NCBI GenBank assembly: GCA_014237715.1
Contig: JAAZZG010000005.1
Location: 30,391-94,390, forward strand
DNA: 64,000 nucleotides
Reading direction: 5' to 3'
DNA from: Acidimicrobiales bacterium
GTDB taxonomy: Bacteria > Actinomycetota > Acidimicrobiia > Acidimicrobiales > MedAcidi-G1
Under the pieces are notes generated by a model. The model made no database searches. It was not told the DNA's origin and was given only the letters and a program-made list of their open reading frames with translations. The translations under genes and the position numbers were made by a program. Positions 1 through 18,735 of this stretch are shown here, one piece after another. The stretch's first letter is position 1. Each line of letters starts with the position of its first letter.

Positions 1-972
1 GGTCTGGATGCTCTGTCCGCCGATCTGCACAGCCCCGAACAGCACGGCCACCGCTGCGACGCCTGACGGTCTCATCAGGGCCAGCGCGGCCACGATGATG
101 CCGGCGAACCCGAAGCCGTTGGACAGGCTCTCGGTGATCCGATCCGAGGTGCCACTCAGCTCGATGCCTCCAGCGAATCCGGCCACACCACCGGAAAGGA
201 CGAGAACCGTCAGGATTTTGCGTTCCAGCGAGATCCCGGCATACCGGGCCGTAGCCCCCGAGGATCCGGCGACCCGCAACTCGTAGCCCCACGCGGTGCG
301 GCTGGACGCCAAACCGAACAGAAAGATCACGACGGCGGCCAGCACCACCCCGACGTGGGCCCGCTCGAACAGACCGGGCAGCCGGGCGTTGTCGGACAAC
401 ATCGGGGCCAGGGGAAAATTGTGGGAGTCGGGGTCCTTCCACCGGCCGTGGACCAGCCACTGGACGAGACGAATGGCCACCTCGTTCAGCATGAGGGTGG
501 TGATGATCTCGTTGACACCAATCCGGGCCCGGGCAATGGCCGGACCGAGGGCCAGCAGGCCACCACCGAGGATGGCGGCGGCGAGCATGGCCGTGATGAG
601 GAGGGGCGACGGCCACTCCCCGCCGACCCGAGCCACCCAGGCCGCACCTACGGCCCCAGCCATGATCTGGCCTTCGGCGCCGATGTTCCACAGGCCCATA
701 GACCCAGCCACGGCTACCGCCAGACCGGCGAGGCCCAACGGCACCGCCCGGTTCAGGGTCACCGACCAGGCCCGGGGGTCACCCAGGGAAGCCTCAAACA
801 TCCGCTCATAGACCCGCATCGGGTCGTGGCCTGAGCCGACCAGCAGGACGATGCCGACCACGAGGGCCACGGCCAAGCCGATACCGAAGGCCAGCGGTTG
901 GCCGCCCCGCAGCACCTGCTCACGGCGAACTAGCACCGGCCTCCCTACCCGTCTCCCCATTGGCCGATTCAT
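1..972 (-). CDS. ABC transporter permease (BMP/nucleoside-sugar type); 3' end runs off the left window edge
   Basis: Absent from the ORF track because it is open at the window edge. My reverse-strand translation reads MNRPMGRRVGRPVLVRREQVLRGGQPLAFGIGLAVALVVGIVLLVGSG...LWNIGAEGQIMAGAVGAAW...GFGFAGIIVAAL, a multi-TM hydrophobic protein. ATG 972-970 overlaps TGA 971-969 of the upstream ATPase (ATGA coupling). Confidence 0.75.
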   Translation of the reverse strand, partial: MNRPMGRRVGRPVLVRREQVLRGGQPLAFGIGLAVALVVGIVLLVGSGHDPMRVYERMFEASLGDPRAWSVTLNRAVPLGLAGLAVAVAGSMGLWNIGAEGQIMAGAVGAAWVARVGGEWPSPLLITAMLAAAILGGGLLALGPAIARARIGVNEIITTLMLNEVAIRLVQWLVHGRWKDPDSHNFPLAPMLSDNARLPGLFERAHVGVVLAAVVIFLFGLASSRTAWGYELRVAGSSGATARYAGISLERKILTVLVLSGGVAGFAGGIELSGTSDRITESLSNGFGFAGIIVAALALMRPSGVAAVAVLFGAVQIGGQSIQT

Positions 973-2564
973 CGGTTGGCTGCCTGATCATCGACTGGTA
1001 CGGCATGACCGACCATCGCCTCGCCGATGGCGTGGCGTTCAGCGGCCGTCGGATCAAACTCGGCCACGATCCGACCGGCGTGGATCACCAGCAGGCGATC
1101 GGCCAGCGTCAACAACTCGTCGAGGTCCTCCGAGATGAGCAGGACCGCCGCGCCGGCGTCGCGCTCGCCCACCAGTAGATCCTGGATGGCCTTCACCCCC
1201 TGAACGTCGAGCCCCCGGGTGGGTTGGGCGGCCACCACGACCCGAGGGCCGTCGACCAACTCCCGCCCAACCAGCAGACGCTGGAGGTTGCCGCCTGACA
1301 GCCCGGCGATCGGCTCGTCCAGCGGGCCGGTACGCACGCCGAACTGATCGACGAGGTCCCTGCAATGGCTGGTCGCCGCCCCGGAATCCAGGAACGGACC
1401 ACGGCGGTGACGGCCGTAGGTCCGCAACACCGCGTTGTCCGTCACGCTGAGTCGGGGAGCCAAGCCCACACCGAGGCGGTCCTCGGGGATGTAGCCCAGC
1501 CCGTCTGCGAAACGCTGACGCGGGCTGGCGTCCGTTCGGTCTTCACCCATCAGGTGGACCGTCCCCGACTCGACAGGTCGCAGACCGGCGATGCACTGGG
1601 TCAACTCGCGTTGGCCGTTGCCGGCTACCCCAGCGATACCCACAATCTCCCCCGAACGCACGGCGAGCTCCATGCCGTCGAGGCCGTTCAGCCCACGATC
1701 GTCGAGACACCGGAGATGCCGCACCTCGAGACGGACTTCGCCGGCCTCGCGGAGAGGGGGCCGTTCGGTAATCACCGGAGACGCTCCGACCATGAGCCCG
1801 GCCAGTTCGGAGGCGTCGGTATCGGCCACCGACAGCGAGGCGGCCACCGTCTTTCCGCCCCGGAGCACGGTGGCCTCGTCGCAGAAGCCCATCACCTCGT
1901 GGAGCTTGTGGCTGATGAACACTACGGTGCGGCCGTCGTCGGCCATGTGGCGCAATACGGCGCCCAGTTCGTCGGCCTCGCCCGGGGTGAGGACCGCCGT
2001 CGGCTCGTCCAGAATCAAGATCTGGGCGTCACGCCACAACGCCTTGAGAATCTCGACCCGTTGGCGCTCGCCCATGGAGAGTTGCCAGACCGGCCGGTCG
2101 GGTTCGGTAGCCAGACCGAAGCGTTCGGCCAGTGCCCCAACCGCGAACTCGACGGCCGAGCGCCGCACGATTCGCTCGCATGCCCCCAGCACCACATTCT
2201 CGGCCACGGTGAACGAAGGCACGAGCCGGAACTCCTGGTGGACCATCCCCACCCCGGCAGCCAACGCGTCGGCCGGTGTGCGGAAGTGGTGTGCCATGCC
2301 GCCGATGCGGACATCGCCTTCGTCGGGCCGGTACACGCCTGACAGGACATTCATCAGGGTCGACTTCCCGGCACCGTTCTCGCCGAGAACAGCGTGCACG
2401 CTGCCCCGGCGGACCCGCAGGTGGGCACCGGCATTGGCCACCACGCCGGGAAATCGCTTCCAGATGTCCCGTAGCTCGACGGCGGGTAGGTCGTCAGCGG
2501 ACGCGACCCCATCCGGCATCTCCGAAGTACCGGCAAGGCCGGTCGGGTGCGGGGGTTCGGTCAT
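969..2564 (-). CDS. ABC transporter ATP-binding protein with duplicated ATPase domains (BMP/sugar-nucleoside importer type)
   Basis: ORF 969..2657. Two Walker A motifs (GENGAGKST, GVAGNGQRE) and two signature motifs (LSMGERQR, LSGGNLQR). Start trimmed to MTEPPHPTG (2564), which follows a GCAGGA SD-like sequence; 2657 remains possible. Confidence 0.85.
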   Translation of the reverse strand: MTEPPHPTGLAGTSEMPDGVASADDLPAVELRDIWKRFPGVVANAGAHLRVRRGSVHAVLGENGAGKSTLMNVLSGVYRPDEGDVRIGGMAHHFRTPADALAAGVGMVHQEFRLVPSFTVAENVVLGACERIVRRSAVEFAVGALAERFGLATEPDRPVWQLSMGERQRVEILKALWRDAQILILDEPTAVLTPGEADELGAVLRHMADDGRTVVFISHKLHEVMGFCDEATVLRGGKTVAASLSVADTDASELAGLMVGASPVITERPPLREAGEVRLEVRHLRCLDDRGLNGLDGMELAVRSGEIVGIAGVAGNGQRELTQCIAGLRPVESGTVHLMGEDRTDASPRQRFADGLGYIPEDRLGVGLAPRLSVTDNAVLRTYGRHRRGPFLDSGAATSHCRDLVDQFGVRTGPLDEPIAGLSGGNLQRLLVGRELVDGPRVVVAAQPTRGLDVQGVKAIQDLLVGERDAGAAVLLISEDLDELLTLADRLLVIHAGRIVAEFDPTAAERHAIGEAMVGHAVPVDDQAANR

Positions 2565-2717
2565 CGGTGGTCCTGCGGTTCCGGTCTCGATGAATGGTCG
2601 CGATGAGAGGCCCTGCCGGGTGATCTCAGGTCGGACGTGACGGCGCCGGCGGGTCATCCCCGCCGGCGCCGCGTCCGTATGGTCCCCCTTGGCAGGGGGT
2701 GGGCGTCAGGGTGAGAA

Positions 2718-3800
2718 TCAGCCGGCGGAGCCGACGACCCCTTCGACGAAGACGCCGATCCCCAGCATGTCGCCGTCGCTCATCGTCTCGCCGGCCGCCA
2801 CGAGCACGCTGCCGTCCTGAGCGTTGATCGGGCCCTGGAACGGATGGAACGAACCGTCGATGATCTGCTGCTTCCGTTCCGCCACCGCGGCGACCACGGA
2901 TGCGTCCACGTCGCTGGCGATGGGCGCCAAGTCGACCGTGCCGTCAGCCATCGAACCCCAGTAGTAGCCACCCTCATACGTGCCGGCCGTGGCCTGCCCG
3001 ATGACCTCGGCGTAGCGCGGGCCCCAGTCCCAGACCGGCGCCGTGAGGTGGGCCGCCGGAGCGTGGGCGCTCATATCAGAGTTGTAGGCCACCCAACGGG
3101 CGCCCGCAGCTTCGGCCTTCTCGCCGGCTGCCGTGGAGTCCTGATGCATGGCAATCACGTCAGCACCCTTGTCGAGCATCGCCTGGGCCGAGTCACCCTC
3201 GACCACCGGGTCGAACCACGTGCTGGTCCAGACCACCTCGACCTGAGCGGCCGGGTTGATCTCACGGACACCGAGAGTGAAGGCGTTGATGCCCCGGATG
3301 ACCTCGGGAATCGGGAAGGCCGCCACGTAGCCGATGAGGTTCGACGAGGTGGCCGAACCGGCGACCATGCCGGAGAGATATCGGGGCTCATACATGCGCC
3401 CGAAGCTGTTTCCGAAGTTGGTGCCGTTGGCCTTGTAGCCCGAGACGTGGTCGAACACGACGTCGGGGAACTCAGCGGCCAGGGCTTCCATGTCGTCCAT
3501 GTAACCGAACGAGGTGCCGAAGATGACGTTGTAGCCCTGATCAATGAAATCGCGAACGTGGTTGCCGAAGTCGGCTGTGCCCTCCGGCACGGCCTCGACA
3601 TAAGCGGTCTCCACGCCGGTCTCGGCTGCGGCCGCGGCTCGACCCTGATCGTGGGCGTAGGTCCATCCGGCATCTCCCACCGGTCCGACGTAGATGAAAG
3701 CCGCCTTGGTGGCGTCCTCGTCGTCGGATCCACAGGCGGAAGCCACCAAAGTAAGGCTCAGGACGACGGCCAACAGGCCGGCGATTCGGCGTCGCATCAT
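2718..3800 (-). CDS. BMP-family (basic membrane protein / PnrA-like) substrate-binding lipoprotein of the ABC importer
   Basis: ORF 2718..4130 trimmed to MMRRRIAGLLAVVLSLTLVASACGSDDE, a signal peptide with lipobox LVASAC, preceded by GGAGGGAGAA. The mature part (FIYVGPVGDAGWTYAHDQGR...) looks BMP-like. The longer N-terminal extension is Arg/Pro/Trp-rich and implausible. Confidence 0.85.
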   Translation of the reverse strand: MMRRRIAGLLAVVLSLTLVASACGSDDEDATKAAFIYVGPVGDAGWTYAHDQGRAAAAAETGVETAYVEAVPEGTADFGNHVRDFIDQGYNVIFGTSFGYMDDMEALAAEFPDVVFDHVSGYKANGTNFGNSFGRMYEPRYLSGMVAGSATSSNLIGYVAAFPIPEVIRGINAFTLGVREINPAAQVEVVWTSTWFDPVVEGDSAQAMLDKGADVIAMHQDSTAAGEKAEAAGARWVAYNSDMSAHAPAAHLTAPVWDWGPRYAEVIGQATAGTYEGGYYWGSMADGTVDLAPIASDVDASVVAAVAERKQQIIDGSFHPFQGPINAQDGSVLVAAGETMSDGDMLGIGVFVEGVVGSAG

Positions 3801-3936
3801 TTCTCCCTCCGGCCGCCTCGGTCCGGGTCCACATGACCCGCCGAGAGCCAAGACGGCCCGCCGGCAATCATTCCACCTTTCGCCAATACGCGCCACGGCG
3901 GGTGGAGAGCCTTGTCTGCGGCCCCAAATCCGAAGG

Positions 3937-4173
3937 TCAACCGGCCACCGTGAGTTGCAGACTGAGCCGGGTGGCGCCGTTGGCCACCGCGGCCCGGACC
4001 ACAGCGTCGACCGCGTCCAGCACGGTGATCGTCTCGCCTTCCACGGCAGTCCCGAAGGGGCCGACCTCGACGTCCAACCCGGCCGCCTCGGCCACCGCGA
4101 TTGCCGCCTTGACGTGGGGCCCGGGGTCACCCTCCACGAAGGGTTCTATGGTGAACTCTGCGACCGTCGACAT
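3937..4173 (-). CDS. MTH1187/YkoF-like small ligand-binding protein (DUF77 family)
   Basis: ORF 3937..4281 trimmed to MSTVAEFTIEPFVEGDPGPHVKAAIAVAEAAGLDVEVGPFGTAVEGE..., which resembles the MTH1187/YkoF N-terminus (M..aE.si.P.g). Alternative start at 4191. Confidence 0.6.
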   Translation of the reverse strand: MSTVAEFTIEPFVEGDPGPHVKAAIAVAEAAGLDVEVGPFGTAVEGETITVLDAVDAVVRAAVANGATRLSLQLTVAG

Positions 4174-4204
4174 GGGCTCATCATGGCCCATGAACAGCGG
4201 TGCG

Positions 4205-5530
4205 TCAGTCCCATAGGACCCGGGCCCGCTGGGCCAGGTCTCGGTGGGCAGTCCGAAGATCCACCCCGGCGAGCTCTCCATCGGTCACCACGGCACGCCC
4301 CCCGACCAAGAGGTGGCGAACCCGACGATCCGGGCCCAGCACCAGTCCAGCCACCGGGTCGGCCATGTCGCCCAGATCGTCGCCGGGCCACACCGCCAGA
4401 TCGGCCCGCATGCCCACGGCGAGGCGACCGGTGTCGGGCATGCCCAGGCAGTCCGCACCGCTTGTCGTGGCCATCTCCACCACATCGGCCGGCATCAGCG
4501 CACCGGGACGCAGCTCTCGCAGTCGGGCGGTGTAGAGGGCCTGCCGGAGTTCGGGGAACAGTCCTCCGACTTCGTTGGACGCCACACCGTCGACGCCCAG
4601 ACCCACCGGGCAGCCGGCGGCCCGTAGGTCGGTGACCCGGCACATGCCGGCGGCCAGTCGGGCGTTGGACGACGGACAGTGGGCGATGCCCGTACCGGCC
4701 GAGCCCAGGCGGGCCATCTCATCGTCGTCGATGTGGATGCCGTGGGCCAGCCACACGTCGTCGCCCACCCAACCCCATTCGTCAAGCATCTCCACGGGGC
4801 GTCGCCCGAACCGTTCCAGGCAGTGCTCCTGTTCGGCGATGGTCTCGCACAGGTGGGTGTGAAGGCGTAGGCCGTGCTTCCGGGCCAACTCGGCGGACTC
4901 CACCATGAGTCCGGTGGTCACTGAGAACGGGCTACACGGGGCGACAGTCACGAGCACCATGTTGCCGTCGTGGTGGCGCGCGATCACCGACTCGGTGGAG
5001 GCCAAGATGGCGTCGCGGTCCTCGACCACATGGTCTGGCGGCAGGCCGCCAGCACTCTCGCCGAGATCCATAGACCCCCGCGACAGATGAAGGCGGATGC
5101 CAACGGTTCGGGCCGCATCGACAATGGCGTCGAACACCGTGTCGTCGCCGCCCGGGACCAGGTAGTGGTGGTCCGCCGCGGTGGTGCAGCCGGTGGCCGC
5201 CAACTCACCCAAGCCGACCAACGCGGCAGCCCGTACGTCGTCGACCGAGAGCCGACCCCACACCGGGTACAGCTCGACCAGCCACTGGAAGAGGTCGCAG
5301 CCGGTGGCCCGACCCCGGGTAATCCACTGGTACAGGTGGTGATGCGTGTTGACGAGACCCGCGGTGATGACGTCGCCGTCGCAGTGCACCACCTTGTCGC
5401 CCGACTCCGGAGCCACGATCCCCACCGCAGTGATCCGACCATCCACAATGGCCACGTCGCCAGGGTGTCGGGCACCCCGCAGGACCAGTCGATCCTCGGG
5501 CGCCGACGAACCTTCCCGAGAGGAAAACAT
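4205..5530 (-). CDS. Amidohydrolase of the TRZ/ATZ (COG0402) group, 8-oxoguanine deaminase-like
   Basis: ORF 4205..5611 trimmed to MFSSREG (5530, 2 nt after the upstream stop). Contains VNTHHHLYQWITRG...LFQWLVELYPVWGRL...GCTTAADHHYL, the metal-binding HxH and downstream blocks I recall for 8-oxoguanine/isoxanthopterin-type deaminases. Confidence 0.75.
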   Translation of the reverse strand: MFSSREGSSAPEDRLVLRGARHPGDVAIVDGRITAVGIVAPESGDKVVHCDGDVITAGLVNTHHHLYQWITRGRATGCDLFQWLVELYPVWGRLSVDDVRAAALVGLGELAATGCTTAADHHYLVPGGDDTVFDAIVDAARTVGIRLHLSRGSMDLGESAGGLPPDHVVEDRDAILASTESVIARHHDGNMVLVTVAPCSPFSVTTGLMVESAELARKHGLRLHTHLCETIAEQEHCLERFGRRPVEMLDEWGWVGDDVWLAHGIHIDDDEMARLGSAGTGIAHCPSSNARLAAGMCRVTDLRAAGCPVGLGVDGVASNEVGGLFPELRQALYTARLRELRPGALMPADVVEMATTSGADCLGMPDTGRLAVGMRADLAVWPGDDLGDMADPVAGLVLGPDRRVRHLLVGGRAVVTDGELAGVDLRTAHRDLAQRARVLWD

Positions 5531-5532
5531 GG

Positions 5533-6534
5533 TCACGGGGTCCAGTCGGCGAAAGTGTCGATCATCATCCGGACGTCGGGGCCCAGCGGATACAGGATGG
5601 GGCAGGTGCAACCGTCAGCCATGTACTGGCCCACCTTTTCCCGGACCTCATCGGGCGTGCCCGCCGCGCAGATCATCTGCACCACATCGTCGGGCACCAA
5701 CTTAGAGGCGGCCACCACCTGCTCGTGGGTGGCCGGCCAGGTCAGGACCCGACCGATCTCCTCGAGTAGCGATGCGGGCACACCAGAGGCCTTCATGATG
5801 TGGGGCTGCTGACCCAGGTACTGGGTGACCATGAGGCGGGCGCCGTCGAGGGCCTCGGCCCTGGTCTCGGCCACCGAGCACACCACCAACTGGGGGCGGT
5901 CCAGGTCATCGACCGAGCGACCCACCCGGGCGGCCCCGTCGGCCAGGCGGTCCATGGCCTTCCGGTTGTACTCGGGCGACACCAGATAGTTGAGCACGAC
6001 ACCGTCGGCTATCTCGCCAGTCAACTCGAGCATCTTGTCGCCCGTAGCACCGATGTAGATCGGTACGTCCTTTGGGCGACGCTGCTGGTACACGTAATCC
6101 AACTCCACCCCATCTAGGTGCACGAACTCGCCGTCATAGGTGACCGTCTCGTCGGCCAGCAGAAGCCGACACGCCTCGACGGTCTCCCTAATGGCGGTCA
6201 ACGGTCTCCGACGCTGCACGCCGACCTTGCTAGCCAGCGGTTCCCACCACGCACCGATGCCCAGGATCATCCGACCAGGGGCCAGGTCATCCAGCGTCGA
6301 GAAGGTCGACGCGAGGCGGGCCGGGTTACGGGTCCAGCAGTCGACCACCCCCGAACCGATCTTGATGGTCTCGGTACAGGTGGCAAAGGCCGCCATGGGA
6401 ACCACGGCGTCACGGACCAGTCTCGAGTCGGCCTGCCACACGGCTTCGAAGCCGCGTTGTTCGGCGTACGTGACGTACTGCATCGCCTCTGTAATGGGGT
6501 GCGCATCCTGGAGGTAGATGGCCAGTCGGGTCAT
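5533..6534 (-). CDS. Luciferase-like monooxygenase (LLM) family oxidoreductase, Mer-like and probably F420-dependent
   Basis: ORF 5533..6729 trimmed to [37 protein letters not shown]... TIM-barrel LLM pattern of about 333 aa, similar to F420-dependent Mer-type enzymes. Cofactor assignment is by resemblance only. Confidence 0.7.
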
Positions 6535-6547
6535 GTTGCTTCCTCTC

Positions 6548-7666
6548 TCACATCTCTTCGAGTCGACGGTGCAGGCGTACCGCCTGTTCGGCAGCCCGAG
6601 CCCGAACCTCGTCGGCGTCGACCCGGGTGGGTCGACCGTCAACCAGCACGACCTCGCCGTCGACCTCCACGGTGCGGGGACCGACCCCCGTGGTGAAGGC
6701 CAACCGCCAGGGGTCCATGTGCGAGTCATTCCAGGTCACCCGGTCATTGCGGGCCTCGGGGAACAGGTCCCAGCCGGTGGCCAACCATCCCCAGGCGGTC
6801 TCGGGCGAGGCGGTCACGTCGTCCTCGCGGTGGCGCGCGTAGGCCACCCGGAACTCGTCGAGCATGTCGGCCCCGATGCCGTCGGTACCGAGTGCTACCG
6901 GGTTGGCGAACCGGGCCGGGCGGGCGTAACCCACCGAGTTGTTCATGTTCGACCGAGGGTTGTGCACGAAAGTCCCGGCCAGGCCGTGGTCGTCGTGGAG
7001 ATGCACGCCGTGGACGAGCAGCCAGTCGTCGGTGGCCAGCGGCCGCAGGCGGTCGGCCACTCCGACGTCGGCGGCCCCCTCGGCCACATGCACGTGGACT
7101 CCCACCCCCAGGTCGGCGGCAAGGCCGGCGGCCGCCTCGAGGCTGGCGTCGCTGCAGGTGAAGGCGGCGTGGATGCCCACCATGCCCCGGCCACCAGCCC
7201 GCAGGTACCGCTCGTTCTCAGCCAAGCCCCGGCGGGCTCCGTCGGCGCCGTGACGGTCGGTGATCCCATAGGCGCACGACACCCGAACGCCCACCTCGGC
7301 ACACGCCTCGGCGATGACGTCGAGTGACCCGTCGATGGCCTCGGGCGATTCGTGGTGGTCGATGATCGCCGTGCAACCACGCTCCAGGGCCTCCACCGCA
7401 CCGAGCATGGCCGACCAACGGATCGATTCCAGGTCCAGCGCCCGGTCGAGTCGCCACCAGACCAACTCCAGGATGTCGGTGAAGCCGGTCGGCGTGCGGG
7501 GTGGGGCGGGCATACCCCGAGCAAGGGACGAGTACAGGTGGTGGTGCGCGCAGACCAGGCCCGGGCTCGTCGCTCCGTTCGCGGCATCCACGGAACTCAG
7601 CGTCCGTCCCAGTCGGCCCAGTGTTCCTGCTGGTCCGGTGCCGCCATGGGTAACGAATGGCGCCAC
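6548..7666 (-). CDS. Amidohydrolase, SsnA-like putative aminohydrolase/cyclic amidase (short N-terminus)
   Basis: ORF 6548..7666 with a GTG start. HxH motif in [16 protein letters not shown], later HVHVAEG and GTDG blocks. The longest ORF overlaps the upstream Moco gene by 70 nt; an alternative GTG at 7591 (VDAANG) lies just after that stop. Confidence 0.7.
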
Positions 7667-10227: not shown

Positions 10228-11207
10228 GACCGGTCCCCCTCATCTCGTTTCCGGTCGATCTGATCATCCAGGGCGCCCTGCACGTGGGCAGGTACCTCGG
10301 GCCCCCGCTGGGTGGTGATACGGCCGTAGACCTCGGGACGGCGGTACCGGTCGAAGTCGAAGAGCGTTTCAGTGAAGTTGGCGCACAGGTCCAGGTCAGC
10401 GGTGGCCACCACCAACTCATCGCCCACCGTGGTCGCCACTGCACGGACCTCTCCCGACGGGGCGATGATGGCGCTCTCGCCCAACAGGTCGCAGCCCTCT
10501 TCACACCCGGCCTTGGCCACGCCGACCACCCACATGCCGTTCTGGTAGGCGCCGGACTGGAGCACCAACCCGTTGTGGAAGCCCTGCAGACGGTCCTGAT
10601 CGGGGTCGGGGGCGTAGTGGATCGGCGTGTTGTAGCCGATGAGGGCGAGCTCGCAGCCCTGGAGACCCAGCACCCGGTAGGTCTCAGGCCATCGCCGGTC
10701 GTTGCAGATAGCCATGCCGACAACCCCACCGAACGCACCGTGCACGTCGAAGCCATCGCCGGCCTCGAAGTAGTAGCGCTCCAGGTGCTGGAAGGCCCGC
10801 CACGGCTCATGGTCCTCATGGCCGGGGAGGTGGACCTTGCGATATCGACCCACGACGGTGCCGTCTCGTTCCACGAGGATCGCCGTGTTGTAGCGGTGCC
10901 CGTCGGGCGTGAGTTCGGCATACCCGAGGTGGAAGCCCACGCCGAGGCGACGGGCCTCATCGAACAGGGGTTGCGTCTCGGGGCCGGGCATCTCGGTCTC
11001 GTAGAACCGGTCGGCCTCAGCCAGATCATCGACCCACCACCGCGGAAAGAAGGTCGTCAGCGTGAGTTCAGGGAACACCACCAGGTCGCACCCGGCCTCG
11101 GCTCCCTCCCGGAGCAGGGCGATGAGCCGCTCGACGACCATCGTTCGAGTGTCGGCCAACTGGATGGGGCCGACCTGGGCGGCCCCGATGGTGAGGGAGC
11201 GCGTCAT
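10224..11207 (-). CDS. Carbon-nitrogen hydrolase, N-carbamoyl-D-amino-acid hydrolase (D-carbamoylase)-like
   Basis: 327 aa. Glu in VVFPELTLT, Lys in YRKVHLPG, Cys in MAICNDRRWPE (the ICNDRRWPE block matches D-carbamoylases as I recall them). ATGA overlap with the upstream gene. Confidence 0.8.
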   Translation of the reverse strand: MTRSLTIGAAQVGPIQLADTRTMVVERLIALLREGAEAGCDLVVFPELTLTTFFPRWWVDDLAEADRFYETEMPGPETQPLFDEARRLGVGFHLGYAELTPDGHRYNTAILVERDGTVVGRYRKVHLPGHEDHEPWRAFQHLERYYFEAGDGFDVHGAFGGVVGMAICNDRRWPETYRVLGLQGCELALIGYNTPIHYAPDPDQDRLQGFHNGLVLQSGAYQNGMWVVGVAKAGCEEGCDLLGESAIIAPSGEVRAVATTVGDELVVATADLDLCANFTETLFDFDRYRRPEVYGRITTQRGPEVPAHVQGALDDQIDRKRDEGDRS

Positions 11208-12472
11208 CGGTCCAGTGGCTCCTGATCAAGGGTGAGGATGGTCTGGAGCAGGACATCGGCCCCGGCCACCAGATCAGCCGGGTCGGTGTGCTCGGCTGGA
11301 TTGTGGCTGATCCCATCACGGCTGGGCACGAAGACCATGCCGGTCGGGCACACCCGGGCCAGCATCTGGGCGTCATGGCCGGCACCCGACGGCATCCGTC
11401 GCACCGAGTGGCCCAGATCGACGGCCACCGCGGCCACCGCGTCGACCACCCGGTCATCGAAGGCCACCGGTTCGAATCGGGCCAGCGTGCGTTCGACGAC
11501 GGTCACCCCCTCAGCGGCCGCGGCTTCGGCCACGAAGCGGGCCAGGTCGGACTCGGCTTCCTGAAGGAGGGCCTCGTCGGTGTTGCGAAGGTCCACGGTC
11601 ATGGACGCCGAAGCGGCCACCACATTGACCAGATTGGGGTGTAGTTCGATCCGTCCCACGGTGGCCACCTGTCGACCCTCCCCCATGGCACCCATGCGAG
11701 TGGCCAGCTCACGCACATGGGCCGTGACCTTGGCGGCCACGTAGGCCGGATCGTGGCGCAGGGCCATGGGGGTGGTCCCGGCGTGGTTGGACTGGCCGGT
11801 GATGGTCAGCTCGGTCCACGAGATGCCCTGAACGCCGGTCACCGCGCCAATGGTGACACCCTCGGCCTCGAGCACCGGGCCCTGTTCCACGTGCAGTTCT
11901 ACGAAGGCCCGGGGTGACGGGCCGGGACACGGCGAGGTGCCCCGGTAGCCGATGCGATCCAGCTCGGCGCCCACGACGGCACCGTCGATACCCTCGATGT
12001 CGAGTGCCTCCTCGACGGCCATGCCACCCACGTAGACAAGGCTGCCCAGCATGTCCGGCGGGAACCGGGCGCCCTCCTCGTCTGTGAAGAAGCCCACGGC
12101 CACCGGATGCTCAGTTTCGATGCCATTGGTTTCAAGGGTCTCGATGACCTCTAAGCCAGCCAACACTCCGAGGTTCCCGTCGTAACGACCGCCGGTTCGG
12201 ACGGTGTCTATGTGGCTACCCGTCATGGTCGGCGGCCCGTCGATCCGTCCAGCCCGCACGCCAACCACGTTGCCGATCCCATCGATTGAGATGTCCAGAC
12301 CCAGGTCACGCATCCATGTGACGACCAGGTCGCGGCCGGCCCGATCGTCGTCGGTCAGGGCGAGACGGCACGAGCCGCCACCATCGATGGGGCCGATGGC
12401 CGCGAGGTCCTCGATGCGTCGCATCAGGCGGTCACCGTCGATACGTAGTGCAGCGCTCCGGTCGCTGGTCAT
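11204..12472 (-). CDS. M20-family Zn hydrolase, allantoate amidohydrolase / N-carbamoyl-L-amino-acid hydrolase type
   Basis: 422 aa. MTGSHIDTVRTGGRYDGNLGV and the overall AllC/AmaB-like pattern. ATGA overlap with the upstream Moco subunit gene. Confidence 0.8.
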   Translation of the reverse strand: MTSDRSAALRIDGDRLMRRIEDLAAIGPIDGGGSCRLALTDDDRAGRDLVVTWMRDLGLDISIDGIGNVVGVRAGRIDGPPTMTGSHIDTVRTGGRYDGNLGVLAGLEVIETLETNGIETEHPVAVGFFTDEEGARFPPDMLGSLVYVGGMAVEEALDIEGIDGAVVGAELDRIGYRGTSPCPGPSPRAFVELHVEQGPVLEAEGVTIGAVTGVQGISWTELTITGQSNHAGTTPMALRHDPAYVAAKVTAHVRELATRMGAMGEGRQVATVGRIELHPNLVNVVAASASMTVDLRNTDEALLQEAESDLARFVAEAAAAEGVTVVERTLARFEPVAFDDRVVDAVAAVAVDLGHSVRRMPSGAGHDAQMLARVCPTGMVFVPSRDGISHNPAEHTDPADLVAGADVLLQTILTLDQEPLDR

Positions 12473-14775
12473 GCGATGACCTCCGCGGTCAAAGCGTTGT
12501 CACCCAGGCAGATGTCCGACGGCCGGATCGGTACCCGTGGCAGGGCCAGGCCGGTGGCGTCGCGGACGGCCGCGGCCACCGCGGCGGTCGATGAGATGGA
12601 CGGCGGCTCACCGATCCCCTTGGCACCGAACGGGGCCCCGGGTTCAGGTTGTTCGATCAGAGCGGCCACCTCGAGGGGCGGCATGTCCAACGCCGTGGGG
12701 ATCAGGTAGTCGGTGAACGAGGCGTTGCGGATGCGTCCGTTGGTGACCTGGACCTCCTCCATAACCGCTAGGCCCACGCCCTGGGCCGCTCCCCCCTCCA
12801 GTTGGCCGAGGGCCTGAAGCGGATGCAGCACACGACCAACGTCCTGGGCAGTGGTCAGCTCGACGACCTTCACGAGCCCCAGGTCGGGATCGACATCAAC
12901 GATGGCCCGGTGGGCCGAGACGGCGAACGAGACGTGGGCGTCACCCTGCCCGTCGCCATCGAGTGGTGACGTGGGGGCGTGCCGGTGGACCACCTCGGCC
13001 TCCACCCGCTCGACGGTCAACTCCTCAAGGGAGAGATCCAGATCTCCAGCCAACGACACGATCCGACCATCGACCAGCACGAGGTCGTCGATCGACACGC
13101 CATGGGTCGCGGACACCGCGGCCAACAGCTCGCGGCGAACCGTCTCACAGGCCAGCTGCACGGCCCCACCGGACATCCAGGTCTGGCGGCTGGCCGACGT
13201 GGAGCCCGCAGAACCGATGGACGTCGTCTCGACCGGTGCCAGGACGACCTCGTCCACGCCCAACACCTCGCCGGCGATCTGACGGGCCAGGGTCACGAAT
13301 CCCTGACCAACCTCGGCACACGCACAAGTGATGGTGGCCACGCCGTGGTGGAGCACGCACCGTGCCGCACTCGAATCGTCGAAGCCCTCTGAGAACATCA
13401 AGTTCTTGAAGCCCACAGCCACCGCCTCGCCACGAACCACGTGCTGGGCATCCGCGGTTCGTCCGGCACCACCGGGTCGAGCCATGGGCTCGTCGGAACC
13501 GAGTGCAGCTGATGGGTGGCCGGCACACGCCCGGATCACCTCGGCCACCGGCAGCGTCCCGGCTATGACCTGGCCGGTGGCAAGACGGTCCCCAGGTTCC
13601 AGGGCGTTTCGCAGCCGGAGGGCCACGGGATCCATGTTCAGCGCGGCAGCCAGACGATCCATCTGGGCCTCGTGGGCGAAGCAGGTCTGGACGGCGCCGA
13701 AGCCCCGCATGGCCCCGCAGGGCGGGTTGTCGGTGCGGACCACCACACCCTCGATTTCGACCGATGGGACCATGTACGGGCCGGCGGCGAAGCAGGTGGC
13801 GTTGGCGATCACCGCACTGCTGGACGAGGCGTAGGCCCCACCGTCCAGCAAGAGGTGGGCCTCGACGCGCACTAGGTCTCCGTCGGTCGTGGCGTGGTGC
13901 CGGTACCACATCCGTGCTGGATGGCGATGCACGTGACCGTGGAAGCTCTCCTCGCGGCCGTAGGACATCTTCACCGGGCGCCCGGTGCGTAGCGCCAGCA
14001 GGCACAGATGCACATGGAGGCTGAGATCCTCTCGGGCACCGAACGCCCCGCCTACGCCGGCCAGTGTCAGGCGAACCTTCTCGTGGGGCAGATCGAGGCA
14101 GGCCGCCACCTGGTCGCGATCGACGTGCAGCCACTGGGTGGCCACGTACAGGTCGACGCCACCGTCGTCGTCAGGAACGGCCATGCCGGATTCGGGGCCG
14201 AGGAATGCCTGGTCCTGCATGCCCACCTCGTAGGTGCCCTCGACGGACACAAGGTCGTCACGGTCGGCGGCCGACTGGTCGCCATGACGCAAATGGATTC
14301 GCCGGATGACGTTGCCGTCGGGATGGATGGGATCGGCGGTCTCGGCCAGCGCCGGATCCACCAGGGGTTCGGTGGGCTGCCAGTCCACGACAATGGCCGC
14401 TAGGGCACGGCGCGCCGTGTCGGGATGGTCGGCGGCCACCACGGCCACCGGTTCGCCCTCGTAACGCACCACGTCACCGGCCAGCACCGGCTGGTCGCAA
14501 TGCTCGAGTCCGAAGGTGGGGCTACCGGGCACGTCCTCATGGGTGAGGACGGCATGGACTCCGTCGATGGCCAGCGCCGGACTCGTGTCGAGGCCCCCGA
14601 TCCGGGCCGCGGGGTGCGGCGACCGGAGCGTGGCACCCCAGAGCATCCGGTCGTGATGAAGGTCGCTGGAGAAGGCGAAGCCGCCGGTCACCTTGGGGAC
14701 GCCGTCAGGGCGGGGTGCGTTCTCGCCTATCCGGGGGCCGACCGACGTCCGGGCACCTGTCTCAACCACCGTCAC
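12469..14775 (-). CDS. Xanthine dehydrogenase-family molybdopterin-binding large subunit
   Basis: 768 aa. N-terminal PDGVPKVTGGFAFSSDL, GGAFGARED block, C-terminal GAKGIGEPP. 4-nt overlap with the Fe-S subunit gene. Confidence 0.9.
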   Translation of the reverse strand: MTVVETGARTSVGPRIGENAPRPDGVPKVTGGFAFSSDLHHDRMLWGATLRSPHPAARIGGLDTSPALAIDGVHAVLTHEDVPGSPTFGLEHCDQPVLAGDVVRYEGEPVAVVAADHPDTARRALAAIVVDWQPTEPLVDPALAETADPIHPDGNVIRRIHLRHGDQSAADRDDLVSVEGTYEVGMQDQAFLGPESGMAVPDDDGGVDLYVATQWLHVDRDQVAACLDLPHEKVRLTLAGVGGAFGAREDLSLHVHLCLLALRTGRPVKMSYGREESFHGHVHRHPARMWYRHHATTDGDLVRVEAHLLLDGGAYASSSSAVIANATCFAAGPYMVPSVEIEGVVVRTDNPPCGAMRGFGAVQTCFAHEAQMDRLAAALNMDPVALRLRNALEPGDRLATGQVIAGTLPVAEVIRACAGHPSAALGSDEPMARPGGAGRTADAQHVVRGEAVAVGFKNLMFSEGFDDSSAARCVLHHGVATITCACAEVGQGFVTLARQIAGEVLGVDEVVLAPVETTSIGSAGSTSASRQTWMSGGAVQLACETVRRELLAAVSATHGVSIDDLVLVDGRIVSLAGDLDLSLEELTVERVEAEVVHRHAPTSPLDGDGQGDAHVSFAVSAHRAIVDVDPDLGLVKVVELTTAQDVGRVLHPLQALGQLEGGAAQGVGLAVMEEVQVTNGRIRNASFTDYLIPTALDMPPLEVAALIEQPEPGAPFGAKGIGEPPSISSTAAVAAAVRDATGLALPRVPIRPSDICLGDNALTAEVIA

Positions 14776-15263
14776 GGGGTGGCCTCTGCCTGTCGGGCCG
14801 CGGCGGCCCGGTCGACAGCATCGAGGATCCGGCCGTAGCCGGTGCAGCGGCAGAGGTTGCCGGAGATGGCCTCGCGTACCGTGAGGTCGTCGGGCTTGGA
14901 ATCGTCATCGAGTAGGGCGTCGACGGCCATCAGTAGACCGGGTGTGCAGAATCCGCACTGCACGGCGCCGGCGTCCAGGAACGCCTGCTGTACGTCGGAG
15001 AGGTCGCCTTCCGAGCCGAGGCCCTCGATAGTCACCACCTCGCGTCCGGCGGCCGCCTCGGCCAGCACCAGGCAGCTACACACCGTCTCGCCGTCGAGGC
15101 GAACGGTGCACGAGCCGCACTCGCCCTCTTCGCACGCATTCTTGGACCCGGCCAGACCCAAGCGCTCGCGCAGCACGAACAGCAGGCTCTCGCCGGCCAC
15201 GGCATCGACTACCGAACGGTTGTGACCGTTGATGGACAGGGAGAAACCGTCCACGCTCGTCAT
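14772..15263 (-). CDS. (2Fe-2S)-binding small subunit of the molybdenum hydroxylase
   Basis: ORF 14772..15911 trimmed to MTSVDGFSLSINGHNRS (163 aa). CEEGECGSCTV...C, CGFCTPG, CRCTGY. The discarded N-terminal extension is Arg/Pro-rich and overlaps the FAD subunit gene. Confidence 0.9.
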   Translation of the reverse strand: MTSVDGFSLSINGHNRSVVDAVAGESLLFVLRERLGLAGSKNACEEGECGSCTVRLDGETVCSCLVLAEAAAGREVVTIEGLGSEGDLSDVQQAFLDAGAVQCGFCTPGLLMAVDALLDDDSKPDDLTVREAISGNLCRCTGYGRILDAVDRAAAARQAEATP

Positions 15264-16153
15264 GCGGGCACCGGCGCGGACCCGGGAAACGCCCGGAGGA
15301 TGGCCCGGCGGGCCAGGACGCGTACGGCGTGTCGGCGGTACGCCGCAGAGCTGCGGTGGTCGTCGATGGGTCGGGCGGCATCGGCCACCAGGTCGGCGAA
15401 ACGGTCCACGAGGTCGGAATCCGGAGAGGCCATGTTCTCGAAATCGAGCCGCTCGGCCACCAGCACCTCGGCTTCTACGGCCCGCAGCGGGACCGGAGCC
15501 ACCGAACCGAGGGCTATCCGGACGTTGCGGCCCGGTCGGTCTACCACCAGGGCGAGGGAAGTCACGGCGATGACCATGGCGTTGCGGGTTCCCACCTTGA
15601 GGAACTCCTGGGGGCCTTCGAGGACCGGCACGCGGATGACCGTGATGAGCTCGCCGGGGATCAGGGCGTTGGCCTTGACCCCGGTCACGAACTCGTCCAG
15701 CGGCAGCCGACGGGCTCCACCGGCCGACTGCAACTCGATCTCGGCGTCCAGTGCGGCAAGTACGGGCAGGGTGTCGCCGGCGGGTGACGCAGTGGCCAGG
15801 TTTCCGCCGAGGGTCGCCGTGTTGCGGATCTGTGGGGAGCCGACGGTGCGGGCTGCCTGGGCCAGAGCGGGCACCAACGAGGCGAGGGCCGGTTCGGCGA
15901 GGTCGGTGCACGTAGTCCCGGCGCCGAGGCGTAGGACGTCAGCACGGTCGCCCTCAAGGCTCCATCCCCGGAGTTCAGGTATCCGATCCACGGCCACCAC
16001 GTGGCCGATCGTGCGGACTCCACGGTTCACCTCGACCATGAGATCGGTGCCACCGGCCAGAACCAGTGCATCGGGGTGGGCAGCCAGGGACGCGCAGGCT
16101 TCGTCGATGGATGTCGCAATGGTCACCGGCACCCCAACATGCTGCCGTGCCAC
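15260..16153 (-). CDS. FAD-binding subunit (CoxM/XdhB-like) of the molybdenum hydroxylase
   Basis: 297 aa. LAGGTDLMVEVN FAD-binding block. GTG start at 16153; an internal GTG at 16132 is possible. First gene of the long minus-strand operon. Confidence 0.85.
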   Translation of the reverse strand: MARQHVGVPVTIATSIDEACASLAAHPDALVLAGGTDLMVEVNRGVRTIGHVVAVDRIPELRGWSLEGDRADVLRLGAGTTCTDLAEPALASLVPALAQAARTVGSPQIRNTATLGGNLATASPAGDTLPVLAALDAEIELQSAGGARRLPLDEFVTGVKANALIPGELITVIRVPVLEGPQEFLKVGTRNAMVIAVTSLALVVDRPGRNVRIALGSVAPVPLRAVEAEVLVAERLDFENMASPDSDLVDRFADLVADAARPIDDHRSSAAYRRHAVRVLARRAILRAFPGSAPVPA

Positions 16154-16205
16154 GCCCCATTCGTCAACATTTTGTCAACTAAGGGGTCGGGGCTAGGGTG
16201 CCCCC
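16154..16205. promoter_or_regulatory. Divergent promoter/operator region with a GTCAAC direct repeat
   Basis: 52-bp gap between the divergent starts 16153 (-) and 16206 (+). It contains the locally AT-rich CATTCGTCAACATTTTGTCAACTAAGG, with GTCAAC at 16163-16168 and 16174-16179 (11-bp register). Confidence 0.35.
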
Positions 16206-16580
16206 GTGGCCACCTCCGACCCACTCCTGGACGCGCTACAGCCAGTCGTCGAGGCGCTCGGGGGCACGCTGGTCCCACCGGCCGAAGCCGAAGGCGAGGA
16301 TGTCAACGTCGTGTGGGATGGCGCCGTGGTTGCCGCCGTCCGCCGGCCCGACCCCCACCTGGACCTACACGACGCCCTTCCCACCCTCATCGCCGAGGTC
16401 GAACACGACATGGGTCACCCGTGCGCCGAGATGGACCGCTCCCAGAAGCAGGAGGCCGTGGCGCTCCTCAACGAACGGGGAGCGTTCACCCTCCGCAAGT
16501 CCGTGGAGGACGTGGCCGAGGCGCTCGGGGTGAGCCGCTTCACCGTCTACAACTATCTGGAGCGCGCCGAAGCAGGCTAG
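16206..16580 (+). CDS. HTH_22 (YheO/DauR-like C-terminal) DNA-binding transcriptional regulator
   Basis: 124 aa, GTG start. The C-terminus QKQEAVALLNERGAFTLRKSVEDVAEALGVSRFTVYNYLE matches the YheO-type HTH_22 pattern. Divergent from the catabolic operon. Confidence 0.7.
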   Translation: MATSDPLLDALQPVVEALGGTLVPPAEAEGEDVNVVWDGAVVAAVRRPDPHLDLHDALPTLIAEVEHDMGHPCAEMDRSQKQEAVALLNERGAFTLRKSVEDVAEALGVSRFTVYNYLERAEAG

Positions 16581-16609
16581 ATCGTGGGCCTCCGGTACGG
16601 TCCGCGGCC

Positions 16610-18070: not shown

Positions 18071-18095
18071 TCCGGGCTCCAACAATTCGGGATAT

Positions 18096-18623: not shown

Positions 18624-18735
18624 GTCCGCTCCGTCCTCCGTGCTCGTGGCCGGGAAACCTACCCGTTGAGCGACCGATCGGCCGGAGCCGGGTCCGGGCG
18701 TCCGGACATCAATCCCGGTCGTCAGTCACGAACTG

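Follow-up and report, generated by a model that had tools for sequence, protein, structure and literature searches.

Organization and gene content of the operon

The window analyzed here is a 64-kb stretch of DNA (68% G+C) from an Acidimicrobiales bacterium (contig JAAZZG010000005.1). Thirteen minus-strand genes, g1 to g13, run through it in one direction from position 16153 past position 1; their predicted products include a xanthine dehydrogenase (XDH), a short form of the amidohydrolase SsnA, a luciferase-like (LLM) oxidoreductase, two hydrolases for N-carbamoyl amino acids and parts of an importer. From the families of these proteins and the conservation of their neighborhood, we consider it likely that the operon serves purine-nitrogen scavenging by a variant of the reductive uric-acid (2,8-dioxopurine) pathway in marine Acidimicrobiia (Microtrichales-like). 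The layout was derived from the listing of open reading frames (ORFs), from stop-to-stop frames and from inspection of start codons. Families were called by Pfam and NCBIfam profile searches, and the closest structures were taken from sequence matches to the PDB. The gene content of the window was read from the Pfam matches of genes called on metagenome contigs that carry proteins exactly identical to those queried. The genes of the operon are listed below; Moco stands for molybdenum cofactor, FAD for flavin adenine dinucleotide and DOPDH for 2,8-dioxopurine dehydrogenase.

g1, 15260..16153, minus strand: FAD-binding subunit of a three-subunit XDH, 297 aa (FAD_binding_5 and CO_deh_flav_C; best NCBIfam match XdhB)
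g2, 14772..15263, minus strand: 2Fe-2S subunit of the XDH, 163 aa (Fer2 and Fer2_2; 4-nt overlaps on both sides)
g3, 12469..14775, minus strand: Moco subunit of a PucD-type XDH, 768 aa (TIGR03196 pucD)
g4, 11204..12472, minus strand: M20 N-carbamoyl-amino-acid amidohydrolase of the AmaB type, 422 aa (TIGR01879, NF006771)
g5, 10224..11207, minus strand: CN-hydrolase, N-carbamoyl-D-amino-acid hydrolase (D-carbamoylase), 327 aa (PDB match)
g6, 7597..10227, minus strand: fused 2Fe-2S and Moco enzyme, 876 aa, proposed urate 6-dehydroxylase (2,8-dioxopurine dehydrogenase, XdhD/DOPDH-like) (TIGR03311)
g7, 6548..7591, minus strand: short-form SsnA amidohydrolase, 347 aa from GTG 7591, alternative GTG 7666 (homology to E. 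coli SsnA)
g8, 5533..6534, minus strand: Mer-like LLM oxidoreductase, 333 aa, proposed F420H2-dependent 2,8-dioxopurine reductase (PF00296)
g9, 4205..5530, minus strand: 8-oxoguanine-deaminase-family amidohydrolase, 441 aa (NF006055)
g10, 3937..4191, minus strand: small YkoF/MTH1187-like ligand-binding protein, 84 aa (PF01910 Thiamine_BP, 2e-11)
g11, 2718..3800, minus strand: Bmp/PnrA-type lipoprotein, substrate-binding protein of an ABC importer, 360 aa (PF02608 Bmp; lipobox LVASAC)
g12, 969..2564, minus strand, alternative starts 2657 and 2519: ABC ATPase with two ATP-binding domains, 531 aa (two PF00005; same call on the metagenome contigs)
g13, 972 to past position 1, minus strand: first ABC permease, cut by the window edge (PF02653 BPD_transp_2)

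The same operon was found, by exact matches of the queried proteins, on metagenome contigs L001-L006 and L092-L094. These contigs place a second permease gene just outside the window, beyond position 1, so that the thirteen genes counted in the initial annotation are those of the window and the operon totals fourteen; on L001-L006 the two PF02653 permease genes encode 366 and 310 aa. Our analysis of ORFs and junctions reproduced the thirteen co-directional genes, the six 4-nt overlaps and the gap sizes given in that annotation, and its family labels for all operon genes agreed with the profile searches. Five overlaps follow in succession from g1 through g6, and the sixth joins g12 and g13. The remaining junctions are gaps of 5 nt (g6/g7), 13 nt (g7/g8), 2 nt (g8/g9) and 13 nt (g9/g10), together with 136 nt (3801-3936) before the Bmp gene g11 and 60-198 nt, depending on the start chosen, before the ATPase gene g12. 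The overlaps support co-transcription; they are ordinary in high-GC operons and not remarkable alone.

The exact g8 protein is present in 175 blocks of the assembly collection, and the nearest genomic relatives are marine Acidimicrobiia/Microtrichales metagenome-assembled genomes (MAGs). Elsewhere the window encodes a cytochrome P450 and mycothiol-type DinB/MDMPI, PAC2, DUF3159 and DUF3039 proteins. This gene content reads as actinobacterial, and the cytochrome P450 would fit an oxygen-using lifestyle of the host.

The core enzymes and their relatives

The reductive uric-acid pathway of E. coli and Clostridium sporogenes was reconstituted in 2025 (Li et al., bioRxiv 10.1101/2025.05.19.654654; Liu et al. 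2025, bioRxiv 10.1101/2025.04.24.650524). In it XdhD/DOPDH converts urate to 2,8-dioxopurine, which is then reduced by YgfK (UacX in C. difficile), an enzyme that was reconstituted or purified anaerobically (Li et al.; Liu et al.). SsnA was shown to act on the reduced 2,8-dioxopurine (Li et al.), and HyuA opens the hydantoin to (R)-2,3-diureidopropionate (Liu et al.). YgeW (with YqeA) or UacY, together with YgeY, take off the two ureido groups, and YgeX converts 2,3-diaminopropionate to pyruvate; the order of ureido removal differs between the two studies or is left open (Li et al.; Liu et al.).

The clearest link of the operon to this pathway is g7, which shares 34% identity with E. coli SsnA in an alignment of 387 columns (residues 56-441). 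The motifs PGxVCxHxH, HVHVAE, WWRLDRAL, HNxRSNMNN and ALGTDGIG are invariant between the two proteins, and all metal ligands are kept. The database search with g7 gave 7,962 proteins at E<=1e-10 in all, and across the database matches listed a short SsnA form of ~352 aa recurred as a conserved clade. The metagenome gene call for g7, which starts at ATG 7513 and gives 321 aa, was rejected because it would delete the HxH metal ligands; GTG 7591 (or 7666) is likely to be the true start.

The product of the next gene, g8, matched PF00296 with 236 bits. Its top 17 NCBIfam matches were all F420-dependent LLM families, with Mer first, whereas types using flavin mononucleotide appeared only at ~1e-11; its PDB matches came in the order Mer (3e-43), FGD and Adf. 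Its scores lie below the cut-offs of the Mer models themselves (202 against 276 for NF002619 and 190 against 349 for TIGR03555). BLAST detected no YgfK homologue in the operon, and the Pfam lists of the window contain no YgfK/UacX-type domain.

To place this gene order among its relatives, we used a motif scan based on the SsnA alignment over 185,579 species-representative genomes. It returned at least 596 relatives, from which the 80 loci nearest g7 were kept (64-88% identity); these are mostly from Acidimicrobiia, and nine carry Chloroflexota labels. The proteins of the window and of E. coli (locus L007) were mapped onto the 80 loci by tblastn. Directly after the SsnA gene, 40 loci have a g8-type LLM gene and 23 a YgfK homologue, never both; with a stricter coverage threshold the counts were 48 and 17, again with no locus having both. 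The one YgfK homologue tested (L053) scored 859 against the TIGR03315 cut-off of 835 and is a true YgfK. At L023 the gene after SsnA (4403-5977), which has no Pfam match, looked like a third type but is probably the N-terminal stretch of YgfK, which Pfam does not match, a reading drawn from its overlap with YgfK-positive loci. In a neighbor-joining tree of SsnA most YgfK-type loci fell in one large clade and a few elsewhere, nested among LLM-type lineages of a single tight SsnA clade far from E. coli SsnA. The Chloroflexota-labelled loci near g7 (L038, L049, L053, L055, L059, L066, L074 and L091) carry a YgfK homologue after SsnA rather than an LLM gene; the LLM type occurs mainly in Acidimicrobiia (Actinomycetota).

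The three genes g6-g7-g8 form the most conserved core of the neighborhood, g6 lying immediately upstream of the SsnA gene in most of the 80 loci; the XDH, M20 and CN-hydrolase genes are the variable parts. M20 genes (29 loci) and CN-hydrolase genes (32 loci) never occurred with YgeW (eight loci), and YqeA was confined to YgfK-type loci. Locus L034 keeps the order g1 to g8 and continues directly with a diaminopropionate ammonia-lyase gene (NF006058, 336 against a cut-off of 276), with a D-hydantoinase fragment at the edge of the locus. L090 repeats the order of L034, with a YgeX-like gene whose tblastn identity to the E. coli protein is 32%. The alternation of LLM and YgfK in one position, taken with the diaminopropionate ammonia-lyase inside the operon, is hard to explain except by a shared pathway.

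The third member of the core, g6, matched TIGR03311 over its full length with 788 bits, the cut-off being 830. Its Moco domain is nearest the nicotinate dehydrogenase of Eubacterium barkeri (3hrd, 2e-64) and then XDH (1jro, 6e-54); DOPDH was likewise placed nearest nicotinate dehydrogenase (Liu et al.). Equivalents of Glu232, Arg310 and Phe344 of Rhodobacter capsulatus XDH are kept in g6, as is every 2Fe-2S cysteine, whereas E. coli XdhD has lost these cysteines. Judged from its family and its position, g6 is most likely a urate 6-dehydroxylase and not a hydroxylase. This would correct the initial annotation, which counted two Moco hydroxylases. Two residues proposed for related enzymes were set aside: Glu606 of E. 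coli XdhD, for which Li et al. suggested a role in orienting urate, is uninformative, lying in an insertion absent from g6 and g3, and the DOPDH signature residue F1009 (Liu et al.) could not be aligned reliably to g6.

The assignment of g3 is firm at the level of family, with a TIGR03196 score of 825.9 bits against a cut-off of 783.65 and with g1 and g2 adjacent, as a PucD-type XDH has them. g3 is 29% identical to E. coli XdhA and g2 50% identical to XdhC; g1, 30% identical to both XdhB and YgfM, may double as FAD subunit for g6. The amidohydrolase g9 scored 543.1 against the curated cut-off of 532 for NF006055, and its best PDB matches were 3hpa (1e-99) and the 8-oxoguanine deaminase 7ww2 (1e-90). 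Deaminases of the g9 type were present in 23 of the 48 LLM-type loci and in none of the 17 YgfK-type loci, often within a minimal g6-g7-g8-g9 core; counterparts are listed in L034, L051, L052, L060, L063 and L085, and one that is 47% identical to g9 still passes the cut-off (621 against 532). The tight linkage to g6-g7-g8 raised the idea that g9 is a second ring opener. We rejected this as the principal reading on two grounds: the 8-oxoguanine deaminase cut-off is passed by g9 and by all its counterparts of 47% identity, and members of the subfamily hydrolyze amidines, not amides.

The properties of g9 bear on a different proposal, in which the operon would degrade a pterin or other oxidized N-heterocycle: the XDH would hydroxylate a pteridine, g9 would be an isoxanthopterin or pterin deaminase and the LLM enzyme would reduce the ring before opening. 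XDH enzymes oxidize pterins; Mer, which supplies the structures nearest g8, has a pterin as its substrate; and g9 also matches 2paj at 5e-71, which we take to be an isoxanthopterin-deaminase-type structure. The matches of g9 to 8-oxoguanine deaminases are nevertheless nearer and exceed the family cut-off, the SsnA-, YgfK-, YgeW-, YqeA- and YgeX-type neighbors in related loci reproduce the E. coli urate cluster, and the Bmp importer and the neighboring purine phosphoribosyltransferase point to purines. We regard a pterin substrate as very unlikely, the least probable of the proposals considered here. The pterin- or pyrimidine-like substrate that the initial annotation left as an alternative is likewise not favored in view of the g9 cut-off, the SsnA motifs and the alternation with YgfK.

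More conventionally, the XDH and the 8-oxoguanine deaminase could make urate for a uricase/allantoin route encoded elsewhere, with the SsnA-like protein, the LLM enzyme, g6 and the carbamoylases unrelated or accessory. g3 and g9 do pass the PucD and 8-oxoguanine deaminase cut-offs, g4 belongs to a broad family that includes allantoate amidohydrolase, and our genome analysis covered the 64-kb window. Against this, it is g6-g7-g8 that are conserved while the XDH, M20 and CN-hydrolase genes vary, the L034 operon holds a diaminopropionate ammonia-lyase and no allantoin-branch enzyme, and g4 is nearer to beta-ureido and L-carbamoyl hydrolases than to AllC. Genes of the oxidative branch are also missing from the window: as the initial annotation had noted, no uricase, 5-hydroxyisourate (HIU) hydrolase, 2-oxo-4-hydroxy-4-carboxy-5-ureidoimidazoline (OHCU) decarboxylase, allantoinase/PuuE or ureidoglycolate enzyme is found among the Pfam matches of called genes in the whole 64 kb. 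HpxO is likewise missing from these matches. We therefore consider such a front end unlikely and return to the reductive pathway as the preferred reading.

The later steps, the importer and regulation

Further features of the operon and its surroundings are as follows.

2632..2677, minus strand: GC-rich intercistronic hairpin between the Bmp gene and the ATPase gene (13-nt perfect inverted repeat)
16163..16179, minus strand: direct-repeat motif GTTGACAAAATGTTGAC in the divergent promoter region (one copy only in the window)
16206..16580, plus strand: divergent HTH_22 DNA-binding protein, 124 aa, candidate regulator (PF13309; adjoins the operon in related loci too)
16610..18070, plus strand: amidase-signature amidase, NylA-like, 486 aa (PF01425)
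18096..18623, minus strand: purine phosphoribosyltransferase, 175 aa, salvage branch (PF00156; weak XPRT/HGPRT NCBIfam matches)
29083..29679, plus strand: CofC/FbiD-type F420-biosynthesis gene (PF01983 on contig L010 5631-6227, mapped to the window)

Two enzymes of the operon could remove ureido groups. g5 matched D-carbamoylases in the PDB over its full length (5e-116 over residues 1-304). Its residues Glu47, Lys124 and Cys168 lie within FPE, YRK and AIC motifs, and we take them, from the Agrobacterium enzyme, to be the Glu-Lys-Cys triad. Liu et al. reported (R)-2,3-diureidopropionate as an intermediate, which suits the identity of g5 as a D-carbamoylase. The other enzyme, g4, scored 392 bits against TIGR01879 and 416 against NF006771 (cut-off 399), placing it with the M20 enzymes of the hydantoinase/carbamoylase-allantoate amidohydrolase group. 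Its nearest structures are N-carbamoyl-beta-alanine amidohydrolase (8c46, 9e-88) and L-carbamoylase (3n5f, 2e-86), with allantoate amidohydrolase at 2e-56 (1z2l), so that the allantoate-amidohydrolase type given in the initial annotation applies to the broad family but not to the closest relatives. g4 gave no BLAST match to E. coli YgeY at E<1e-3 and belongs instead to the AmaB/hydantase subfamily; YgeW and YqeA homologues were not found in the operon by BLAST.

These hydrolases would also fit an F420-dependent Pyd-like or hydantoin/D-amino-acid pathway, in which the LLM enzyme would reduce uracil, thymine or another diazine, g7 would open the ring, and g5 or g4 would be a beta-ureidopropionase or carbamoylase. 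The sequence of a reductase, a cyclic amidine/amide hydrolase and a carbamoyl hydrolase mirrors PydA, PydB and PydC, a parallel stressed by Li et al.; g4 resembles N-carbamoyl-beta-alanine amidohydrolase, and g5 is a D-carbamoylase such as those of hydantoin processes. What makes this pathway very unlikely, in our view, is that g7 shares SsnA-specific motifs with an enzyme proven on reduced 2,8-dioxopurine, that a Moco enzyme is always adjacent and the operon holds two XDH-family enzymes and a purine deaminase, and that the LLM gene alternates with true YgfK. Moreover, two different carbamoyl hydrolases match two ureido groups, and the diaminopropionate ammonia-lyase of the relatives accords with the three-carbon unit of a purine and not with beta-alanine.

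For the opening of the hydantoin in the reductive pathway, the neighboring NylA-like amidase is the best local candidate. Its best PDB match by far is 6-aminohexanoate-cyclic-dimer hydrolase, a ring-opening enzyme (8.6e-105, full length), and it could, with low to moderate confidence, open the hydantoin/dihydrouracil ring as a substitute for HyuA or hydrolyze a ureido group. The gene is present in 13 of the related loci, directly after the LLM gene in five. HyuA is present in three of the 80 loci, and HyuA-like genes were seen in L050 and L089; the NylA-like amidase (13 loci), HyuA (three) and a MmdA-like carboxyltransferase (seven) are mutually exclusive. A hidden hydantoinase was sought by clustering and Pfam among the unassigned ORFs of the related loci and none was found, those ORFs being acyl-CoA dehydrogenase, carboxyltransferase, SDR, Bmp, sulfite-oxidase-type Moco, RCC1, AbiEi, zincin and SBP_5 genes. 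In sponge-associated Acidimicrobiia (Candidatus Poriferisocius-type) the gene with the MmdA-like carboxyltransferase domain stands directly after the LLM gene (L019 12132-13520, with equivalent positions in L025, L028, L030, L031, L040 and L058).

For the last step, two convergent genes for pyridoxal-phosphate (PLP) enzymes of 416 and 527 aa, PALP416 and PALP527, lie beyond the operon and outside the window (L001 17638-18888 and 18903-20486). PALP416 is threonine-synthase-like and 24% identical to YgeX (E 5e-7); PALP527 is CysK-like, with N- and C-terminal extensions. Both were rejected as YgeX orthologues, the NCBIfam and PDB matches showing only weak threonine-synthase and CysK similarity. 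The pair is a possible functional substitute for YgeX: it adjoins SsnA clusters in both Acidimicrobiia and Chloroflexia, and among the 80 loci PALP416 (14 loci) and YgeX (12 loci) never co-occur. About 9 kb past window position 1, after a DnaE-like polymerase gene, lies a 563-aa Amidohydro_3 gene (PF07969; L092/L094 20941-21596). UacY of the C. difficile cluster, which is D-aminoacylase-like, also belongs to PF07969; a tie of the 563-aa gene to the operon is doubtful.

A ribosome-binding site, GGAGGGAGAA, precedes the ATG of g11 at 3800. The hairpin between g11 and g12 folds at -64.8 kcal/mol for a 111-nt segment (z = -5.5 relative to shuffles) and is likely an intercistronic stabilizer or attenuator that raises expression of the binding protein. 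ATG 2657 falls inside the hairpin loop, which argues for the ATPase start at 2564.

Upstream of the operon the divergent region between g1 and the HTH_22 gene is 52 nt long, and beyond it follow the amidase gene and then the purine phosphoribosyltransferase gene, the latter kept in 11 of 26 LLM-type loci with full flanks. The HTH_22 gene and the amidase gene (16206-18070, divergent) are a unit of the same conserved neighborhood. The motif GTTGACAAAATGTTGAC lies 10 nt upstream of the g1 start and recurs nearly letter for letter in the HTH22-g1 intergenic regions of ten loci (L014-L018, L029, L032-L034 and L054), AT-richer genomes included. It is probably an operator for the HTH_22 protein and/or a -35 element (TTGACA). 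Genes of the g10 and HTH_22 types co-occur in 10 of 14 loci and are adjacent in L034, L056, L062 and L073, which suggests that they form a split pair of ligand sensor and DNA-binding regulator for the pathway. Control of the operon probably involves the HTH_22 protein, the YkoF-like g10 and the GTTGAC-N5-GTTGAC site. An Rfam scan of positions 1-20000 (E<=0.1) gave no riboswitch, a scan for sigma-70 promoters and terminators gave nothing above chance, and neither the divergent promoter region nor the 136-nt gap contains inverted repeats.

The CofC gene provides context evidence that the organism would produce F420; no other F420-biosynthesis genes were seen in the window. A second, larger LLM gene (403 aa) lies at window positions 58025-59236 on the plus strand and, together with the CofC gene, suggests a wider use of F420 in the organism.

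We propose the following order of events for the variant of the reductive pathway. Purine bases or nucleosides would be imported by g11-g13 and the second permease, a role in which we have moderate confidence, and g1-g3 would oxidize hypoxanthine and xanthine to urate, a step assigned with high confidence at the family level. To this urate g9 would add by converting an aminopurine, most likely 8-oxoguanine (moderate confidence). g6 would then remove the 6-oxo group of urate reductively to give 2,8-dioxopurine, as XdhD/DOPDH does, and g8 would pass a hydride from F420H2 to C6 of 2,8-dioxopurine in the place of the iron-sulfur (Fe-S) flavoprotein YgfK; our confidence in each of these two steps is moderate. 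It is moderately high for the hydrolysis of the amidine carbon C4 by g7, which would open the six-membered ring to yield ureidomethyl-hydantoin. A cyclic amide hydrolase, for which the NylA-like amidase at 16610-18070 is the candidate, would open the hydantoin/dihydrouracil ring to (R)-2,3-diureidopropionate, with low to moderate confidence. The D-carbamoylase g5 would hydrolyze the 2-ureido group and the AmaB-type M20 enzyme g4 the 3-ureido group, in either order (moderate confidence). Finally, with low confidence, a PLP enzyme would convert 2,3-diaminopropionate to pyruvate and NH3, YgeX in some relatives and here perhaps PALP416 with or without PALP527. With g5 and g4 replacing YgeW, carbamate kinase and YgeY, there would be no gain of ATP. 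Doing without the Fe-S enzyme YgfK and without the carbamoyl-phosphate branch, with its yield of ATP, would be understandable in an aerobe for which purines are a source of nitrogen and not a substrate of fermentation.

Several observations weigh against this pathway. For every operon protein it is read from homology and context. Over its full length g6 shares only 24% identity with E. coli XdhD, and the regiospecificity of g6 is not readable from sequence; the DOPDH signature residue A1078 (Liu et al.) does not discriminate, since g6 has Thr there, g3 has Ser and E. coli XdhD has Tyr. The clostridial DOPDH is selenium-dependent and strictly anaerobic (Liu et al.), and no YqeB, YqeC or SelD occurs in the Pfam lists of the 64-kb window. 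The first ~50 residues of SsnA are missing from g7, which falls under the SsnA cut-offs (267.7 against 444 for NF005540 and 247.3 against 455.5 for TIGR03314), its profile match spanning positions 48-340 only. g8 lies under every NCBIfam equivalog cut-off, and the substrate proposed for it is taken from gene position alone. A feeder role is the sole explanation we found for the link of g9 to LLM-type loci. HyuA gave no BLAST match in the operon and the Pfam lists of the window hold no dihydropyrimidinase/hydantoinase-type gene, leaving one ring opening without an assigned enzyme. YgeX is absent from the window, the operon has no clear counterpart of it and the PALP pair scores weakly. The locus counts are not phylogenetically independent, and the sample is biased to loci nearest g7. 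Lastly, a uricase route may be encoded elsewhere in the genome, outside the window.

Comparison with known systems

The initial annotation had proposed that the ring is opened by the Mop-like, SsnA-like, LLM and D-carbamoylase-like enzymes, as kin of the E. coli ssnA-xdhD-ygeY cluster, and comparative genomics backs this strongly. The proposal that an oxidized purine is opened did not hold, as in the homologous route opening follows reduction, not oxidation. Nor can the route be called undescribed: the homologous reductive pathway was characterized in 2025 and an F420-dependent LLM enzyme near SsnA had already been noted in Chloroflexota, so that the operon is a variant of a published route. 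YgfK, YgeW and carbamate kinase, listed there as lacking, were indeed not found, but they appear to be replaced, YgfK by the LLM enzyme in its position and the others by the D-carbamoylase and the AmaB-type M20 enzyme where YgeW/YqeA are missing. YgeX, also listed, is absent here, but a true diaminopropionate ammonia-lyase lies in the operon of L034, and the PLP pair lies just outside the window.

The class of pathway is thus already known, and a part for F420 in it has been suggested in print before. New here are the full composition of the F420/hydrolytic variant, its predominance in marine Acidimicrobiia, the counted positional displacement of YgfK by the LLM enzyme, and the candidate substitutes for HyuA and YgeX. 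Our full-text literature searches found no other paper that ties F420, Acidimicrobiia or 8-oxoguanine deaminase to the reductive uric-acid pathway. We tentatively go further and suggest, though we judge it slightly less apt to be right than wrong, that Acidimicrobiia of the oxic ocean mineralize purine nitrogen without uricase, through an oxygen-compatible, F420H2-driven 2,8-dioxopurine route with the LLM enzyme as F420H2:2,8-dioxopurine reductase, a non-HyuA hydantoin opener (the NylA-like amidase here, other families in relatives) and the PLP pair in place of YgeX. If this were true, the "anaerobic gut" uric-acid pathway would also operate in free-living marine and sponge-associated actinobacteria, and the remineralization of purine nitrogen in the ocean would partly bypass uricase, allantoin and urea, all four nitrogens ending as ammonia. 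It would be the first role of F420 in purine catabolism, through a new LLM activity. The complexity of its cofactors is a practical limitation of the reductive pathway (Li et al.), and the variant would offer simpler parts for engineered urate degraders, namely irreversible hydrolases and a reductase of one domain in place of YgfK, an Fe-S flavoprotein of 1,000 residues.

With the clusters of E. coli (ygeW-ygeX-ygeY-hyuA-yqeA ... ygfK-ssnA-ygfM-xdhD), C. sporogenes and C. difficile the operon has in common an SsnA that keeps every family motif, an FeS-Moco enzyme of the XDH family encoded next to it, a reductase gene adjoining ssnA, a pair of enzymes that cleave ureido groups and a conventional XDH as companion; an in-operon diaminopropionate ammonia-lyase is shared by the relatives only. 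It differs from them in having a Mer-like LLM enzyme for YgfK/UacX and in lacking HyuA, YgeW, carbamate kinase, a YgeX in the operon and a dedicated YgfM. The M20 subfamily is not that of YgeY, SsnA is without its ~50 N-terminal residues, and g6 has functional 2Fe-2S cysteines. An ABC importer takes the place of permeases, an 8-oxoguanine deaminase is added, and no selenium-trait genes were seen in the window. The host, a marine actinobacterium with a cytochrome P450 gene, is not a gut anaerobe.

In the Chloroflexota, Li et al. described SsnA neighborhoods without YgfK/UacX and with a putative F420-dependent luciferase-family enzyme, from bioinformatics only (a similarity network and genome neighborhoods). 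There, as here, a PF00296 LLM gene lies near SsnA in place of YgfK/UacX, and its product was proposed to reduce 2,8-dioxopurine with F420. Not described for the Chloroflexota are the D-carbamoylase, the AmaB-type M20 enzyme, the 8-oxoguanine deaminase, the NylA-like amidase, the PLP pair, the Bmp importer and the regulator site. The YgfK homologues in the Chloroflexota-labelled loci nearest g7 (MAG labels as given) differ from the general statement of Li et al. that Chloroflexota lack YgfK.

The PydA/PydB/PydC pyrimidine route has in common with the proposed pathway the hydride reduction of a diazine, hydrolytic ring opening and decarbamoylation, and g4 resembles the bacterial N-carbamoyl-beta-alanine amidohydrolase. 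In the operon, however, the substrate would be bicyclic and purine-derived, with two rings and two ureido groups to process, the opener is the deaminase-type SsnA rather than a dihydropyrimidinase, and the reductase is an LLM enzyme rather than a PydA-type flavoenzyme. Mer and the other F420-dependent LLM enzymes, FGD and Adf, share with g8 the LLM TIM-barrel family and are its nearest sequences and structures. Mer also moves a hydride from F420H2 to a carbon bonded to a ring nitrogen, as proposed for g8; unlike Mer, g8 is encoded in a purine operon of a bacterium without methanopterin context. Finally, the D-hydantoinase/D-carbamoylase system used in D-amino-acid production resembles the operon in that g5 is close to Agrobacterium-type D-carbamoylases and that its proposed substrate is an N-carbamoyl-D-amino acid derived from a 5-substituted hydantoin, and differs from it in having the D-hydantoinase that this operon does without.

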